Shown one piece after another: positions 4,543 through 12,372 of a stretch of 64,000 nucleotides of DNA. Positions within the stretch are counted from its first letter, which is position 1. Each line of letters begins with the position of its first letter. Source of the stretch: an uncultured Candidatus Saccharibacteria bacterium (GTDB lineage: Bacteria > Patescibacteriota > Minisyncoccia > Phycocordibacterales > UBA12088); contig CAZLUD010000002.1 in the NCBI GenBank assembly GCA_964562615.1, positions 153,300 to 217,299 of the forward strand. Direction: 5' to 3'. The notes under the pieces are model-generated. The model did not search any database. It saw nothing but the letters and a program-made list of their open reading frames with translations, and had not been told where the DNA came from. The translations under genes were made by a program, and so were the position numbers.

Positions 4543-7500
4543 CTACTCACCTTTTCTGAAGGTGCGTCCCTTTTGCTTTTCAATAAAGTCTACCACTTTC
4601 GCGATAGCAATTTTTGCGCCTGTTTGTGAGTGGCTGTAGGTATAGTCAACACCACCAGAGAGGATTTCAATGATGTGTTCAAGCTCACCATTGCTCCAGA
4701 TAGCCGTTACCTCAAGAAGATCACGATTTGCGCGTCTTCCGCCCTCGATTCTGTTTTTGAATACATCATCAAGCTCGGTAACTACCTGCATAAGGAAGTT
4801 TTGCGCGTCATAGCCTTGGCCTGCAAGCTTTCTCAAGAAGTTGAATGACTTCTCTTCTTTGCCCTCAGCGAGCCATGAGATAAAGGTTGCGATCGCTGAA
4901 ATAGTAGTCAATCCTTCATGTGATGATGAGACCGCTCGCTCGTGTCGTGGCTCGCTGTGCGGCGTGACATGAGCAGAGAATCGTTCACGTGGCATCTGGT
5001 TCTGTGAGGTAGAACGATTGGTACCATGATATCCATCTCTATCTCTAGAATATCGTTCAAGAGAGAATCTATCAGAAGCAACTGCTGATGCCTGTGGCGC
5101 AGCTGGTGCATACTCTTCTACTGCTTTATCAGTAATGGTGTCAGCTGGTGCTTCTACTACTGTTTCTTCTGTAGTAATAGACGCAGGTACATCATGAGCA
5201 ATTTCTGTATCTCGTCGAGTCTCTCTCGTATCTCGCGCACCGTCAATATCTCGTGTTGCAATACGAAGTGCTTGTATGCGCTCACGGTTAAGCGGTATCC
5301 ATCCATCTTCACGTGGATATAGTTTCTTTGCAGCAAGAATCATTTCTTCAAGAAGCATACGTGCCTTTTGCTCATCACTATCAGAGTACGCAACAATCTG
5401 CGCAAGACCTTCAGGAGAAACAAGAACATCTGATTCATACGCGGTCTTCTCAAGCACTCCTTCAAGATATCTATCTGCAATTGCCTCCTTGTGCCACAGA
5501 CGATCAGCTGGAACAGCTGGTGCCTGTGCTTGAGCAGCAAATTGCATAGTGCCTGTTGGAAGATTGTGAGGCGGGTTGTTTGTTCGAGTTACCGGTGCCT
5601 CAGCGCGTGGCGCATGAGTAGGCGCTGGCATGTATCGTGGCTCTTCAGGTGACACATGATGTGAGTGTGCATAGTGATTATGTATCTCTTGTTGAGGCGC
5701 TCGTGGATATTCAGTTGCTGCCTCACGTGGGCTATCTACGTATCGCATTTTTTCTACTTCTCGCTCATCGAGGTATTCTCCCGCTCGTGTAAACGCGACG
5801 CGAATAAATCGGTGGAGATACTGCCTCACGATAAGGTAGTGCGTCATGATACCGGTTACCACAAGTACAGTAAGCCAGAAGAAGAAGGTAAGCAGTGGGC
5901 CAGCTTCAAATCCTGTGTACGGCACTTGAGAAAGGTACACGAAAGCAAGCGGTTGATCAGTTGGAGGCGTAATAGAAGGTGGGGTGGTTGTTGACGCGAT
6001 AGTCACTCTTGGTGGGTTAAGCCCACCGCCGCCTCCACAATTACCGTTAGGACATAGTGGTTGTAGGTCTATTCGTGCCGTACAGGTAGTAGTACCAAAT
6101 TCACCACTAAATACTCCGGTATATAGCTTGCTACTGTTTGCCACAAACTTTGCTGATCCAGACACACTCACATCATTAAGATCAGGCGTGATAGTGGTCT
6201 TGGTTACATTAGTACCACTCCATGAAAGTGTTACTTCAGTATTTTGACCTTCTACAACACGATTAGGTGTAATAGACATCTCACAGACTGGCACCTTGTT
6301 AGGTACAGTCACCGTTGCCTGACAGGTTACCACTGCGCCCGTTGCGCCTGTTGCAGTAAGGGTGTAGGTGGTGGTTTGTGTTGGTGTTACTTGTGTTGAG
6401 TTATTAGCAGTTACTGAACCGATACCCTTATCAATAGATATAGAAGTTGCTCGTAGGGTTGTCCAGGTAAGCGTTGCAGCATCACCGGCTTTTGCAAGTG
6501 TTTGAGGCGATGCGACAAGCGTACAGAATGGTGGGTCAATTGGAGTTTCTACCGTCACTGTTACCTTACAGGTCACGGTCTTTCCCTTTTCACCAGTAAA
6601 GGTACCCGTGTACTCGGTAGTAACCTCAGGTGAGACTACCTTTGAACCATTAAGCGCGATAGCGCCAATACCAGAATCTATACTTGCACCAAAGGTGTTT
6701 TGACTTGTCCACGTTATGGTTGCGCTCTCGCCTTTCTTTATCGTTGATGGTGCTACGCTCATTGCACAGACAGGATCTTGTGGCTCAGGTAGTTTTTCAA
6801 AGGCAGCACACAACGGCACGATATCGTTAGTAGATGATGCGTCTGGGTACGCAGCATGGACAGCGACCGCAGTCTTGGTGTCTTGTGATATAACCAGTTC
6901 GCTATTTACTACTGATACATCGTAATCTTTTGTATCAGCAAGATCAGGTGATGCATTTGTAGAAACAATAGTTGATCCAACCAAGTCACGCAATTTTACA
7001 AACCACTGCTCTTTTGGCTCGGTAACGATGGTTCTGTCAGTGTGATAGTCAAATGACGCAAGCGTTACTTTGTAGGTACCTTTTGCTAGCTCTGCAGGTA
7101 CTGGAGCGGTTTCTGCCGCTGAACCAGACTGATCAGATCGTATCTTACCAGTAGAGAGGTTTACTATCGTTATTCCTTGTGATGGTGAAAGTGGACATAC
7201 CGGCAATGTGTCTTGCTTTACCACAACTGGTGCAGAACACGTGATAGTCTTTCCGTTTTCTCCAACAAAGGTTCCTGTATAGGTAACGTTGGTTGTTGGT
7301 GAAAGATTTTTAGTACCACTTGCTCCTACTGAACCTACGCCATTGTCTATGGTAACTGACGTTACGTTGGTACCATTCCATGTAAGAGTGATGCTTTCAC
7401 CAAGTTTAATAACACTCTTATCTACGCTCATAGCACAGATAGGATCAGGAATTATTCTAAGTTCTCCAAAGTTGTTTCGCTCACTATGATCTCCAGGAGC

Positions 7501-10500
7501 AAGCACGATACTTGAGAACACATCATTTACTGTGTCATTTCCTCCCTTTGTTCCTATTTGATCAAACCAATCTTCATACCCCGCTGGTTGTGACTCAATA
7601 ACGGTATAAGTTCCCTGCTCAAGATTATCAAAGAGATAACATCCATCCGCGCCGGTAGTGGTGGTCTTAGTTACTGCTGAGCCACTTACCGTGGTGCCAG
7701 TAAGAGAGATGGTAGTACCAGGAATTGGTGCATCGTTAGTGTCTTTTACTTTGTTCTTGTTAGCATCAACATATACGCATCCAGATATTTTAGCTGGTGC
7801 AAGGCTCTCTACTCGCTCAAAGAGCGCACAGATTGGAATGATGCTGTTTGGATTGCTGTTTGGATATGCTGCGTGCTTAGCAGTTACCTGTGTGATGGTC
7901 TGGGTAACTTCTAGTCGATCGTTTACCACTTGTGAAAGATAGTTCTGGTCATCAGGAAGATCTCCTATAGTACCGCTCGTACCAAGTGATATAAGTCCAC
8001 CAAATCGAGCAAATGATAGGAACCATTTCTCATCAGGCTGTACTTGTCCTGGCTTTGCTGAGTGTTCATCAAATGAGGCAAGAGTGACTTTGTAGATACC
8101 ACTTGGGATCTCGGTAGTAAATGGACCCTTCTCTGAATTTGCTTTTGTCTGATCTGATCTGATGAGTCCATCACCAAAGTCAATAAGGATTTTATCCGCA
8201 CCGCCAACAAGTGGGCATGTTGGTGTTTGTGGAGGCGGCAAGACAACTATTGGTGCTGAGCAGGTGATTACTTTTCCATTTACTCCAGTTACTGAAGCTG
8301 TGTACGTAGTACTTTGTGATGGTGTCACACTTTGTGATCCATTTACCGCCACGCTACCAACGCCATTATTTATGGTGACGCTAGATGCATTCTCAGTAGT
8401 CCATACCAATGTTGCTACTCCGCCTTGGGTGATTGTGCCTGGGTTAACGGTGAGCGTACACACTGGCTCTGGCTTAGGAGAAACGGTGATTGTAGTACTG
8501 CAAGAAATAGTCTTGCCCTCATTACCTATAAAGGTAGCGGTGTAGGTGGTTGTTTGTGTTGGAGAAACAGCGCTAGAACCATTTACCGCTATAGAGCCTA
8601 CTCCATTATCAATAGAACCACTTGAAGTGTTACTTGAAGTCCATACGAGTGTTGCAGTGCCTCCTGTTTGAATTGAAGATGGGCTTGCAGAAAGCGCACA
8701 TACTGGATTTGGTGTTGGGTTAACCACAATCGTAGTCACACACGTAACACTCTTTCCTGCTTCACCCATAAAGGTTGCCCTATAGGTGGTAGTTTCTGTT
8801 GGCGCTACTGTCTTTGATCCCTGCACCTCTATGCTGCCGATATTGTTATCAAGCGATGCAGAAAGTGCGTGTTGTGATGTCCAGCTAAGAAGTACTTCTC
8901 CACCCTTTGTGATAGTAGTTGGGAAGCCAGTGAGCGTACAAATTGGATCCTTAGGTTCTGGAAGTTTTTCAAATGCTGCACAGATAGGCACGATACTGTT
9001 TGGGTTGCTGTTTGGATATGCTGCATGAGTTACTACTCCAGTTTTTACATCACCGTCTATCTTGAGATTGCTGTTTACCAGCTCCACAAGATAATCTTGC
9101 GTATCAGGAAGGTCTGCAATCGCCGATGTAGTAACTATTGTTGATCCCGTGATAGAGCGAAGCGCAAGTTCCCATGATTCGTTAGGCTGTACTTGTCCAG
9201 GCTTATTGGTGTGATCATCGTACGAAGCAAGGTATACACGGTACGATCCTTGTGGAAGGTTGAGGGCAAATGGCCCTACGGTAGCACTTGCTTGTGATGA
9301 GTTTGCCGTGATGATGTTTGTGGTAATAGGTACCACGGTAAGTCCATCACGTGGTGCAATAGGACACGTTGGCGATGTTGGTGGAGGTGTTACCGTCACC
9401 TTAGCAGAACAGGTAATGGTCTTTCCGTTGGTACCAACAAATGTTCCGATGTAGGTAGTGGTATCACTTGGCGATACTGACTTTGAACCATTTACTGCAA
9501 CTTGTCCTACCCCATCGCTAATTGATGCTGAAGCAACATTTGATGTTGTCCATGACAGTGTCGCAAGACCACCCTTTACTATCGTGCTTGGTGTAATGGT
9601 CATCTGACAAATAGGGTCTGCAAGCGGTACCACCACAATAGTCTGTGAACAGGTAATAACTGAGTTATCTGTACCAACAAATGTACCAGTGTACGTTGTA
9701 GTCTGTGTTGGAGAAACCACCTTGGTGCCAGTCGTAGAAACTGAACCAACACCACCATCTATACTTGCGCTCTTTGTGTTAGTTGAAGACCATGAAAGCG
9801 TAGTAGAACCTCCCACAGAAATAGTGGTAGGGTTTGCCGACATCGTACAGGTAGGTGGCTTTGGAGTATCAGGCAACTTTTTAAAGGCTGCACAGATAGG
9901 GATAATACTGTTAGGTGAAGAGGTATCTGGGTACGCTGCGTGTACCGCCTTTACTGATGAAGCGCTACCTATAGTGAGTGCGGAGTTTACTTTTTGAGTA
10001 AGATAATCTTGTGAATCAGCCAAATCACTTATTGCGTTTGATTGTACTCCGTTGTTTAGCTCAACAAACCAACGTTCGTTAGGTTGCACCTGCCCCACCT
10101 TGTGGGTGTGATCGTCATACGATGCAAGAGTCACGTCGTATTGTCCTGCTGCAAGGTTTACCGCAACTGGTCCCGCAATAGCACTTGATTGGCTAAGGTC
10201 AGAACGTAGTACGGTTGTACCAAAGTTTACAATGGTAGTATCCGCAGATGGAGTGAGCGGACAAGTTGGTCCTGCTACTGGTTTTTTATCAAATGCGACA
10301 CATACAGGCACGACACTATTGTATTTAGTATTCGGCGTTGCGTGGCGCGCGGTTATTTTTGCGATTGGCTCACCAATGAGTGCATTGGTAGCAAAGTTTG
10401 CAGTTACTGATGCTTCTTTTACTCCATCAGCAAGATCTGCGGTTGGTCCATAGGTCGCGATGGTGTTTCCTACTCCATTATATATATCTAGGTACCACTG

Positions 10501-11319
10501 CTCGCTCTTTTGCTCATTTACATTAGTAGATGCTCTATTTGAGTATCCATCATAAGAATACCCAGTGATGGTGTAGTCACCAGACTCTATAGAGACAAAC
10601 TCGCTGTGGCTTGTTGGTGATCCTGCTTGTCCAGCAATAAGACGCACAAACGCGGTGCCGTCTTTAAACTCAACAATAGTTCTTCCCGCTTGTGGAGTAA
10701 GTGGACAGCTAGGAGTGTAAAACTCTGTGCTTGGAGTAGTTGGGGTAGTAGGAGTGGTTGGTGTGGTAGGAACATCAATTCGTTCAAATGATGCGCACAC
10801 AGGATACACACTGTTTGGCGAACCATTTTTATCAAAGGTGACATGCTGCGCGCGTAGCATCGCAATATCGTTTTTGAGTACAAATCCAGTTTCAACCACG
10901 GTAGTTTTGGTGTCTTGCTCTACAAAATCAGCAAGGTCTGAAGTACCCTTTGCCCATTGCCAGGTAGACTGTGCTCCACTTTCAAAACCTATCGAATATG
11001 ATTCGCTAGGTTGCTTTGCAGTTTGTGTTCTTCCGGTGTATCCATCAAATGATACTGCGGTGATTTTGTAGGTACCCTTAGGTAGATTTGTTGCGGCACG
11101 TACATACCCGTCCTCGTAGGTTCCGGTTGAAATGAGCTTCTTTGTTGGAAACGTCACTATAGTAGTGTTTGCTCCCGCAACAAGTGGACATGTTGGAACC
11201 GAAAAATCAGACGTTCCAGTCCCTGTCGCAGAAACTCGGTCAGATGAAAGGATCACGCTCACGGCGGATACGACAATCATCAAAGAAAGAAATGCTGATC
11301 CAATAAGTACTCGTTTCAT
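4543..11319 (-). CDS. giant modular cell-surface protein (2258 aa): signal peptide, repeat modules, VPYTG motif, TM helix, long cytoplasmic tail
   Basis: Uninterrupted 6.8 kb ORF with an N-terminal signal peptide (MKRVLIGSAFLSLMIVVSAVSVIL). Architecture is A-A-A-B-B-A-B-B-B-A-SdrD-B-A-B-B-B. It then has CPNGNCGGGGG, a T/P linker, VYLSQVPYTGF, a TM helix (aa 1808-1831) and a 427-aa tail. Confidence 0.85.
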   Translation of the reverse strand: MKRVLIGSAFLSLMIVVSAVSVILSSDRVSATGTGTSDFSVPTCPLVAGANTTIVTFPTKKLISTGTYEDGYVRAATNLPKGTYKITAVSFDGYTGRTQTAKQPSESYSIGFESGAQSTWQWAKGTSDLADFVEQDTKTTVVETGFVLKNDIAMLRAQHVTFDKNGSPNSVYPVCASFERIDVPTTPTTPTTPTTPSTEFYTPSCPLTPQAGRTIVEFKDGTAFVRLIAGQAGSPTSHSEFVSIESGDYTITGYSYDGYSNRASTNVNEQKSEQWYLDIYNGVGNTIATYGPTADLADGVKEASVTANFATNALIGEPIAKITARHATPNTKYNSVVPVCVAFDKKPVAGPTCPLTPSADTTIVNFGTTVLRSDLSQSSAIAGPVAVNLAAGQYDVTLASYDDHTHKVGQVQPNERWFVELNNGVQSNAISDLADSQDYLTQKVNSALTIGSASSVKAVHAAYPDTSSPNSIIPICAAFKKLPDTPKPPTCTMSANPTTISVGGSTTLSWSSTNTKSASIDGGVGSVSTTGTKVVSPTQTTTYTGTFVGTDNSVITCSQTIVVVPLADPICQMTITPSTIVKGGLATLSWTTSNVASASISDGVGQVAVNGSKSVSPSDTTTYIGTFVGTNGKTITCSAKVTVTPPPTSPTCPIAPRDGLTVVPITTNIITANSSQASATVGPFALNLPQGSYRVYLASYDDHTNKPGQVQPNESWELALRSITGSTIVTTSAIADLPDTQDYLVELVNSNLKIDGDVKTGVVTHAAYPNSNPNSIVPICAAFEKLPEPKDPICTLTGFPTTITKGGEVLLSWTSQHALSASLDNNIGSIEVQGSKTVAPTETTTYRATFMGEAGKSVTCVTTIVVNPTPNPVCALSASPSSIQTGGTATLVWTSSNTSSGSIDNGVGSIAVNGSSAVSPTQTTTYTATFIGNEGKTISCSTTITVSPKPEPVCTLTVNPGTITQGGVATLVWTTENASSVTINNGVGSVAVNGSQSVTPSQSTTYTASVTGVNGKVITCSAPIVVLPPPQTPTCPLVGGADKILIDFGDGLIRSDQTKANSEKGPFTTEIPSGIYKVTLASFDEHSAKPGQVQPDEKWFLSFARFGGLISLGTSGTIGDLPDDQNYLSQVVNDRLEVTQTITQVTAKHAAYPNSNPNSIIPICALFERVESLAPAKISGCVYVDANKNKVKDTNDAPIPGTTISLTGTTVSGSAVTKTTTTGADGCYLFDNLEQGTYTVIESQPAGYEDWFDQIGTKGGNDTVNDVFSSIVLAPGDHSERNNFGELRIIPDPICAMSVDKSVIKLGESITLTWNGTNVTSVTIDNGVGSVGASGTKNLSPTTNVTYTGTFVGENGKTITCSAPVVVKQDTLPVCPLSPSQGITIVNLSTGKIRSDQSGSAAETAPVPAELAKGTYKVTLASFDYHTDRTIVTEPKEQWFVKLRDLVGSTIVSTNASPDLADTKDYDVSVVNSELVISQDTKTAVAVHAAYPDASSTNDIVPLCAAFEKLPEPQDPVCAMSVAPSTIKKGESATITWTSQNTFGASIDSGIGAIALNGSKVVSPEVTTEYTGTFTGEKGKTVTCKVTVTVETPIDPPFCTLVASPQTLAKAGDAATLTWTTLRATSISIDKGIGSVTANNSTQVTPTQTTTYTLTATGATGAVVTCQATVTVPNKVPVCEMSITPNRVVEGQNTEVTLSWSGTNVTKTTITPDLNDVSVSGSAKFVANSSKLYTGVFSGEFGTTTCTARIDLQPLCPNGNCGGGGGLNPPRVTIASTTTPPSITPPTDQPLAFVYLSQVPYTGFEAGPLLTFFFWLTVLVVTGIMTHYLIVRQYLHRFIRVAFTRAGEYLDEREVEKMRYVDSPREAATEYPRAPQQEIHNHYAHSHHVSPEEPRYMPAPTHAPRAEAPVTRTNNPPHNLPTGTMQFAAQAQAPAVPADRLWHKEAIADRYLEGVLEKTAYESDVLVSPEGLAQIVAYSDSDEQKARMLLEEMILAAKKLYPREDGWIPLNRERIQALRIATRDIDGARDTRETRRDTEIAHDVPASITTEETVVEAPADTITDKAVEEYAPAAPQASAVASDRFSLERYSRDRDGYHGTNRSTSQNQMPRERFSAHVTPHSEPRHERAVSSSHEGLTTISAIATFISWLAEGKEEKSFNFLRKLAGQGYDAQNFLMQVVTELDDVFKNRIEGGRRANRDLLEVTAIWSNGELEHIIEILSGGVDYTYSHSQTGAKIAIAKVVDFIEKQKGRTFRKGE
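4546..5826 (-). other. predicted cytoplasmic tail of the giant protein (aa 1832-2258)
   Basis: It follows the single TM helix. The TM-proximal flank is rich in Arg/His (VRQYLHRFIRVAFTR). Two helical-looking segments are separated by P/A/R/E-rich, apparently disordered linkers. Confidence 0.5.
5911..5925 (-). other. VPYTG sortase-signal-like motif (aa 1799-1803) immediately before the TM helix
   Basis: Codons gtg ccg tac aca gga read on the minus strand. The position relative to the hydrophobic helix mimics LPXTG-type sorting signals. Confidence 0.45.
6061..11190 (-). repeat. intragenic protein-module repeats: 6 A modules (about 135 aa) and 9 B modules (about 80 aa)
   Basis: A modules: 10780-11190, 10285-10707, 9865-10263, 8956-9366, 7804-8217, 6784-7197. 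B modules: 9385-9849 (x2), 8239-8940 (x3), 7216-7437 (x1), 6061-6768 (x3). Recurrent strings are CPL..TIV, HAAYPNSNPNSIxPICAAFEKLPEP and C..S..P..I..GG.ATL.W.S.N..S.SID.G.G.V...GS..VSP...TTY...F.G..GK..TC. Confidence 0.85.
7462..7788 (-). other. SdrD B-like / Cna-B-type domain inside the giant protein (aa 1178-1286)
   Basis: ISGCVYVDANKNKVKDTNDAPIPGTTISLTG...TGADGCYLFDNLEQGTYTVIESQPAGYE...NNFGE matches the SdrD-B-like pattern (G.V..D.N.N...D......G..V.L......T...G.Y.F..L..G.Y.V). Confidence 0.7.
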
Positions 11320-11402
11320 AATATGTATCGTGTTGTCTACCTGCTAGTAATAGTATTCTACATCCCAATCACCACCAATTGCTGGCAGTTGTCCACTATC
11401 AA

Positions 11403-12167
11403 TTATCTTGAGAGCGGATAACTTCCAACAAAATCTGCCTCTACAATAAATCGGTCTTGCTTTGTACCAAACGAATTGCACGTCGCAAGGGTAAGGCGCT
11501 TTCTGTCATTCGTGAAGTCAACACGAACATCAGACGCCTGATCCATACGCACCGCCACTACCTTGTATATATTTTCCTGAGAGCCGTTCTGCACCTTTAT
11601 AAGTGCCCCCTCAGTAAGCTTGCCAATATTATTAAACGCCTTGAAATTTTGGTTTCTAATATTTGGCAATCCTGATGAATGAGCAAAAATAAACATGTTG
11701 CCATTGTCTATCATGCTTCCTGACCCAGGAAATCGAACCGCTCCATATAGGAGTGCGCTATCAAGGACTTCAATGTCTCTTGAGAGCGGATTTTTAACCG
11801 CTACATCAACACCGATATCATCGATGATGATGCGAGTTGGTTTATCAGCAACCGACACCTTTGCCTCCATTGATGCAACTGGGTCGATATATACCCCTGT
11901 TGTTTGCGCAACTCTTTCAGACGTCTGTGCTGGTGTTGGAGTTGACGCTGTAGCTGGTGGCGCTGCCTCAACAAACGTAACTGGCACAAGACGAGAGCTG
12001 AGGGTTACGGTAACTTCTTCCTCTGGTAGCTGCTCTAAAACTTCCTCAGTAGTAATTGTTGTTTCTTCAACCATTACTAGTTCAGGATAAAAATCAATTT
12101 TAAAGAGCAGTATCCCCAACAACGCAAAAATAAGTGCAAACACTCCGATATATTCAAAGATTCTCAT
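11403..12167 (-). CDS. sortase family transpeptidase (membrane-anchored)
   Basis: TM anchor (IGVFALIFALLGILLF). Catalytic triad context is present: His in MFIFAHSSG, Cys in RLTLATCNSF (tgc at 11478-11480) and Arg in KQDRFIV. Start chosen at MRIFEY (12165-12167), because the longer ORF to 12278 overlaps the divergent gene. Confidence 0.8.
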   Translation of the reverse strand: MRIFEYIGVFALIFALLGILLFKIDFYPELVMVEETTITTEEVLEQLPEEEVTVTLSSRLVPVTFVEAAPPATASTPTPAQTSERVAQTTGVYIDPVASMEAKVSVADKPTRIIIDDIGVDVAVKNPLSRDIEVLDSALLYGAVRFPGSGSMIDNGNMFIFAHSSGLPNIRNQNFKAFNNIGKLTEGALIKVQNGSQENIYKVVAVRMDQASDVRVDFTNDRKRLTLATCNSFGTKQDRFIVEADFVGSYPLSR

Positions 12168-12372
12168 GGTTGATGAGGCGCTTCGAAGATTATCATTAGT
12201 GAGTCTATTACTCATGCAAGTGAGGAGTTCAAAGACCAAAAGCGTGTTGACGCATGGCGACAACAGACTACTAGTCACCCGTATATACTACCCCAGATTA
12301 TTGACAAAGTCAAGTTTCCGTGTCGGTCTTCCTTTGTCAGAAATATACGGGTGGTGGTACCATATATATACT

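Follow-up and report, generated by a model that had tools for sequence, protein, structure and literature searches.

A probable sortase/substrate cassette with a VPYTG-type sorting signal in Paceibacteria

The stretch of DNA analysed here (64 kb, referred to as the window) carries a sortase gene and, directly downstream on the same strand, the gene for a very large surface protein. The combination of a sortase with a PYTG protein is a class-wide cassette of the Paceibacteria (Parcubacteria, CPR), and is found in a conserved gyrB...thrS-dnaE setting. Sequence comparison favours the view (with a probability of roughly 60%) that this is a lineage-specific sortase/substrate system, in which VPYTG would act as a sorting signal that is cleaved and anchored by the neighbouring sortase. 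The CPR/Patescibacteria account for a large part of bacterial diversity and live in attachment to other cells, and little is known of how they build their surfaces and attach to hosts. Sortase genes are common in CPR (PMC6744442), and a literature search on VPYTG, IPYTG, PYTGF, PYTGL or sortases in CPR/Patescibacteria found no description of a substrate signal for them. The consensus LxQ[VI]PYTG[FL] would provide a concrete, testable signal, with a near one-to-one relation of enzyme and substrate across Paceibacteria. With it, one could predict which surface proteins of uncultured CPR bacteria are anchored to the wall and which are candidate lectins for host binding, and it may represent a new sortase specificity for protein engineering.

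The gene pair and the parts of the sortase are located as follows:

11403..12167, minus strand: sortase gene, 254 aa counted from the ATG
12099-12155, minus strand: N-terminal membrane anchor of the sortase (aa 5-23), a hydrophobic segment recognised by inspection
11406-11855, minus strand: catalytic domain of the sortase (aa ~105-254), with His163, Cys230 and Arg239
11320..11402, minus strand: spacer of 83 nt that separates the sortase and substrate genes
4543..11319, minus strand: substrate gene, ATG start, 2258 aa, whole open reading frame including the stop, encoding a type I membrane or surface protein

The open frame of the sortase gene reaches up to a GTG at 12278. Its product matches Pfam PF04203 (Sortase, MEROPS C60) over aa 114-245, scoring 61.1 bits where the cut-off is 26.6 (E=1.1e-16), and when it is aligned with the solved sortases 4d70, 4g1h and 2ln7, IFAHS gives the catalytic His163, TLATC Cys230 and DRF Arg239. 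A preliminary description of this DNA had recognised a membrane-anchored sortase with an intact His/Cys/Arg context at these three motifs, 83 nt upstream of the giant gene and on the same strand; the Pfam match, the alignment and the gene coordinates all agree with this. The catalytic H, C and R are invariant across sortase orthologues, both in a set of 74 distinct sequences and in 16 representatives, and the orthologues at two other loci (L086 and L088) show the same layout with an N-terminal anchor. As a membrane-anchored enzyme of the cysteine transpeptidase type, with a His/Cys/Arg triad, it resembles the sortases of Gram-positive LPXTG systems (Staphylococcus aureus SrtA, and the class D and E enzymes with LPNTA and LAXTG), and the adjacency of enzyme and substrate genes is likewise that of dedicated sortase operons. 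The NCBIfam models for classes C, D, E, GN and SrtD give at best 24-28 bits against cut-offs of 140-165, and the generic sortase model TIGR01076 reaches 31.4 bits, below its cut-off of 39.35. As the enzyme lies below every NCBIfam cut-off tested, it is regarded as unclassified and divergent, and its sequence places it in a Paceibacteria clade that none of these class models covers. There is no second sortase homologue in the window.

The substrate protein is organised as follows, from its N- to its C-terminus (all features on the minus strand):

11227..11319: Sec-type signal peptide MKRVLIGSAFLSLMIVVSAVSVILSSDRVSA (aa 1-31), with an n-h-c layout ending in VSA, recognised by inspection
6082..11190: ectodomain, built from 16 modules with a Cys pair around each
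within the ectodomain, aa 44-175, 205-340, 353-476, 652-780, 1035-1164 and 1375-1504: six A modules of ~130 aa, CBM6/35/36-like beta-sandwich
within the ectodomain, aa 491-557, 571-637, 794-860, 874-940, 954-1020, 1295-1361, 1518-1584, 1599-1666 and 1679-1746: nine Ig-like B modules of ~67 aa
within the ectodomain, aa 1177-1260: one SdrD_B/SpaA-type module
5926..6054: stalk (aa 1756-1798), with a C-x4-C-Gly run (CPNGNCGGGGG), then a Pro/Thr-rich linker to the signal
5896..5940: extended signal VYLSQ-VPYTG-FEAGP (aa 1794-1808), with the core VPYTG at 5911-5925 (aa 1799-1803)
5827..5895: single TM helix (aa 1809-1831), followed by basic residues (RQYLHRFIR)
5209..5508: domain D1, AAA+ lid-like (aa ~1938-2037), with the family motifs SPEG/SPEA and PREDGW
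4552..4905: domain D2, helical (aa ~2139-2256), like clamp-loader domain III (collar/oligomerisation)

The A modules share the beta-sandwich fold of the CBM6/35/36 family, at ~10% identity to CBM6, CBM35 and CBM36 and with no Pfam CBM match. Unlike in these families, each A module is closed by a conserved Cys pair that joins its N- to its C-terminal end. The six modules add support to the earlier proposal that the protein is an adhesin. A word-index search with the A module returned no matches although relatives clearly contain the module; the empty result reflects how far the 5-mer index reaches and does not speak for absence of the module. The CxNCGGGG of the stalk is conserved among homologues.

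[VI]PYTG occurs only once in the window, counting all frames. The signal sits five residues outside the TM helix (FEAGP lies between), and AF2 predicts a helix at residues 20-58 of the modelled fragment, covering the TM region. As in LPXTG substrates, there is a secretion signal, an x-P-x-T-G core, a hydrophobic helix no more than about 10 residues past the motif, and basic residues beyond it. Compared with the LPXTG pentapeptide, P, T and G are kept, Val or Ile stands in place of Leu, and X is Tyr throughout; the family also differs from LPXTG systems in having LxQ before the motif and [FL][ED][AL]GP after it. By analogy with those systems, the predicted scissile bond is Thr1802/Gly1803. The preliminary description had reported VYLSQ-VPYTG-FEAG and a single TM helix, with the Thr of the motif at 1802, and the positions found here (VPYTG at aa 1799-1803, a hydrophobic segment at aa 1809-1831, then R/H/R) bear this out. 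Its view that the geometry is of LPXTG type needs correction, as it had left out the tail: in place of the short charged end of LPXTG proteins, the helix is followed by 427 aa (1832-2258) of folded, conserved cytoplasmic sequence. Several full-length relatives (P0140, P0154, L119, L146) do end classically, as ...QVPYTGFEAGP-TM-KKKVS*. The LPXTG anchor models TIGR01167 and PF00746 give no match at E<=0.01 in Pfam or NCBIfam.

Conservation within the family is highest at the motif. Homologues retrieved with the whole tail region, and thus independently of the motif, all contain [VI]PYTG (36/36) at an overall identity of only 23-44%, so that the conservation of VPYTG in orthologues, on which the earlier proposal depended, is upheld. 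A logo from 269 distinct sequences reads [VI]xL[STD]Q[VI]PYTG[FL][ED][AL]GP, and 1257 protein clusters match the motif profile. Its subtypes include PYTGFEAGP and PYTGLDLG. The word-index search with this profile returned only proteins of 57-97 aa, mostly fragments (the L086 match is a frameshifted gene call), and these short matches were used as leads and confirmed on full-length proteins and loci. The conserved context spans ~15 residues (-5 to +5 around PYTG), longer than in usual sortase signals, and could instead reflect a structural juxtamembrane element.

Among GTDB species representatives, 257 loci were found. L072 and L046 come from closed Paceibacteria genomes (CP174360.1 and OZ244961.1), and ~450 sortase/substrate pairs are available for comparison. 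An orthologous sortase lies upstream on the same strand at 71 of 80 motif-centred loci (phmmer E 1e-19 to 1e-141); at the other nine the upstream sequence is missing or too short for a verdict, as eight have a contig end within 0.5 kb and the remaining one (L022) has only 2.5 kb upstream. In the reciprocal direction, limited to metagenome loci with >3 kb downstream of the sortase, 31 of 32 sortase-centred loci have a same-strand downstream open reading frame with [VIT]PYTG and a hydrophobic segment, the TPYTG variant being found at L128. The one locus without a PYTG gene is L129, where dnaE abuts the sortase. The co-occurrence of motif and sortase clade, a check proposed in the preliminary description, thus holds in both directions. 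At most loci there is a single substrate, with one sortase per locus, and a look for further candidate substrates in the window and in the ~170 loci fetched gave none. The motif stays with the sortase while cargo and tail vary: the cargo may be a Y/Q/N-rich low-complexity protein, as at L088 with its two substrates, or at the other extreme a CBM/Ig array, and anything between 30 and 466 aa may follow the motif. The protein in the window is the largest copy seen. Of the earlier suggestion of a dedicated pair for a giant adhesin, the pairing therefore stands, and its being peculiar to the giant protein does not, since the cassette is class-wide. Unlike LPXTG systems, it is set in a conserved CPR housekeeping neighbourhood. 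The order pheST-gyrB-...-thrS-dnaE is syntenic across the Paceibacteria genomes that carry the pair, and the locus always lies between gyrB and dnaE/rnhB. Because the whole neighbourhood is syntenic, the adjacency of sortase and substrate genes is in part a matter of common descent of the gene order and not of selection to keep them linked.

The long tail is not peculiar to this protein. A conserved cytoplasmic region of ~250-450 aa follows the TM helix in this protein and in 102 of 106 module-bearing open reading frames. Classical sorting signals are not known to have such a region, and it suggests a function of its own for the uncleaved protein, or at least for its C-terminal fragment. At three loci (L086, L119, L146) D1-D2 has a gene of its own, which comes next after the substrate gene (hhalign probability 99.1%, E=4.6e-19). 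Where the module is separate and soluble, the substrate ends in TM-KKKVS*, and the module is therefore to be seen as an accessory partner in the pathway and not as part of the signal. The order of D1 and D2 is that of the lid (domain II) and then the collar (domain III) of the clamp-loader AAA+ clade. The AAA+ core (domain I) is absent, the region from the TM helix to D1 being predicted as disordered (pLDDT <50), with no strand/helix core. Searches of the cytoplasmic tail gave no Pfam match at E<=1, AAA-type families included, and no NCBIfam family; D1-D2 has no sequence-profile match to DNA_pol3 delta, gamma, delta' or RFC; and the family profile run against PDB sequences found only a designed protein (E=0.64), with no clamp-loader match at E<=10. 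The link to clamp loaders is thus one of fold alone, since the sequence-profile searches were without match. Unlike DnaX (gamma/tau), HolA (delta), HolB (delta') and RFC, the module lacks the ATPase core, is tethered to the membrane and is fused to a surface protein. That D1-D2 is a true derivative of a clamp-loader subunit, physically linking the adhesin/sortase pathway with the replisome or with an oligomer of clamp-loader type, is very doubtful. If it were so, host contact or adhesin processing could be signalled across the membrane to the replication or cell cycle of an obligate epibiont, and the 2258-aa precursor would give rise to a wall-anchored lectin array plus a membrane-tethered regulator of 456 aa.

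A single loose xPxTG in a protein of 2258 aa would be unremarkable on its own, but a fortuitous VPYTG beside an unrelated sortase, or an artefact of annotation, is refuted by the invariance of the motif across divergent homologues, by the profile matches and by the reciprocal co-occurrence. A more serious alternative, although still an unlikely one, is that the protein is an uncleaved type I membrane receptor or adhesin, with LSQVPYTGFEAGP as a structural juxtamembrane element, the sortase in some other role, and the adjacency explained by synteny; the extracellular CBM/Ig array would then be coupled to a cytoplasmic clamp-loader-like oligomerisation module. This would fit the long, conserved and well-folded cytoplasmic module of most members, the conservation well beyond the pentapeptide, the synteny with housekeeping genes and the silence of the LPXTG-anchor models. 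However, the motif persists beside the sortase where the module is absent or separate and the cargo unrelated, which is unexpected of a purely structural element. The lack of any other candidate substrate in the window and the loci fetched also argues against an uncleaved receptor, as does the x-P-x-T-G core with a TM spacing exactly as in sortase signals.

It is less likely again that the sortase processes the signal and uses an acceptor other than peptidoglycan, as in polymerisation of a pilus- or S-layer-like structure in the manner of class C enzymes, or in shedding by hydrolysis. The FCT pilus loci of Streptococcus pyogenes have class C sortases and pilins with variant V-P-x-T-G and QVPTG signals, and the present system resembles them in the Val for Leu before Pro, the Gln before the motif, the adjacent dedicated sortase and the Ig-/SpaA-like cargo; it differs in having one giant substrate and an extra invariant Tyr, and in belonging to a different phylum. 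Pilus sortase SrtC1 (4g1h) is among the nearest solved sequence relatives, SpaA/SdrD_B and Ig-like modules are typical of pilins and MSCRAMMs, some loci (L088) have two PYTG substrates, and little is known of CPR envelope chemistry (PMC5220378). Against such an acceptor stand the single sortase per locus, the mostly single substrate and the NCBIfam class C scores far below cut-off. No pilin motif or pilin-motif lysine context was identified, there are no pilin-like small subunits, and a 2258-aa protein of 16 modules is unlike a pilin subunit.

If VPYTG is indeed a sorting signal for the adjacent enzyme, the giant protein would be exported by the Sec pathway via its N-terminal signal peptide and would stay in the membrane through its stop-transfer helix (aa 1809-1831). 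The co-transcribed membrane sortase, with its triad as aligned, would recognise the juxtamembrane LxQ[VI]PYTG[FL], as the co-occurrence suggests. The enzyme would cut between Thr1802 and Gly1803 and pass the ectodomain, ~1770 aa long, to an amine nucleophile in the cell envelope; judging from sortases of classes A, D and E, this would most likely be a peptidoglycan precursor. The product would be a covalently wall-anchored adhesin with six CBM-like, nine Ig-like and one SdrD-B-like module, which, to judge from the fold similarity of its A modules, could bind glycans of host or partner cells. The remnant, Gly1803-Glu2258, would stay in the membrane with the TM helix, the disordered linkers and the lid and collar module without its ATPase core; as a speculative best guess, this module may oligomerise, or may position precursor and sortase. 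A sorting signal fused to, or in an operon with, a clamp-loader-like module is unexpected, and raises the question of what the remnant does. There is a precedent for a function of the membrane fragment left after cleavage: in Streptococcus gordonii, the 'C-pep' that remains after sortase A cleavage, a peptide of ~30 aa, is sensed by a membrane circuit. The fragment here would be far larger than C-pep, at 456 aa and with two folded domains.

The two genes are probably co-transcribed. Promoter-like sites occur upstream of the sortase gene at 12326-12285, and a scan of the minus strand, in itself weak evidence, found neither promoter-like nor terminator-like sites within the 83 nt between the genes. 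At about half of the orthologous loci, the spacing of sortase and substrate genes is -76 to +154 nt, negative values being overlaps. Other genes lie between the two at about half of the loci, and these encode variable secreted Cys-rich proteins of ~340 aa. These intervening genes were considered as extra substrates and rejected, as they lack the motif. The window shows a positive GC skew over 4-10 kb, which probably derives from the Thr/Pro/Ser-rich giant gene and not from a replication landmark.

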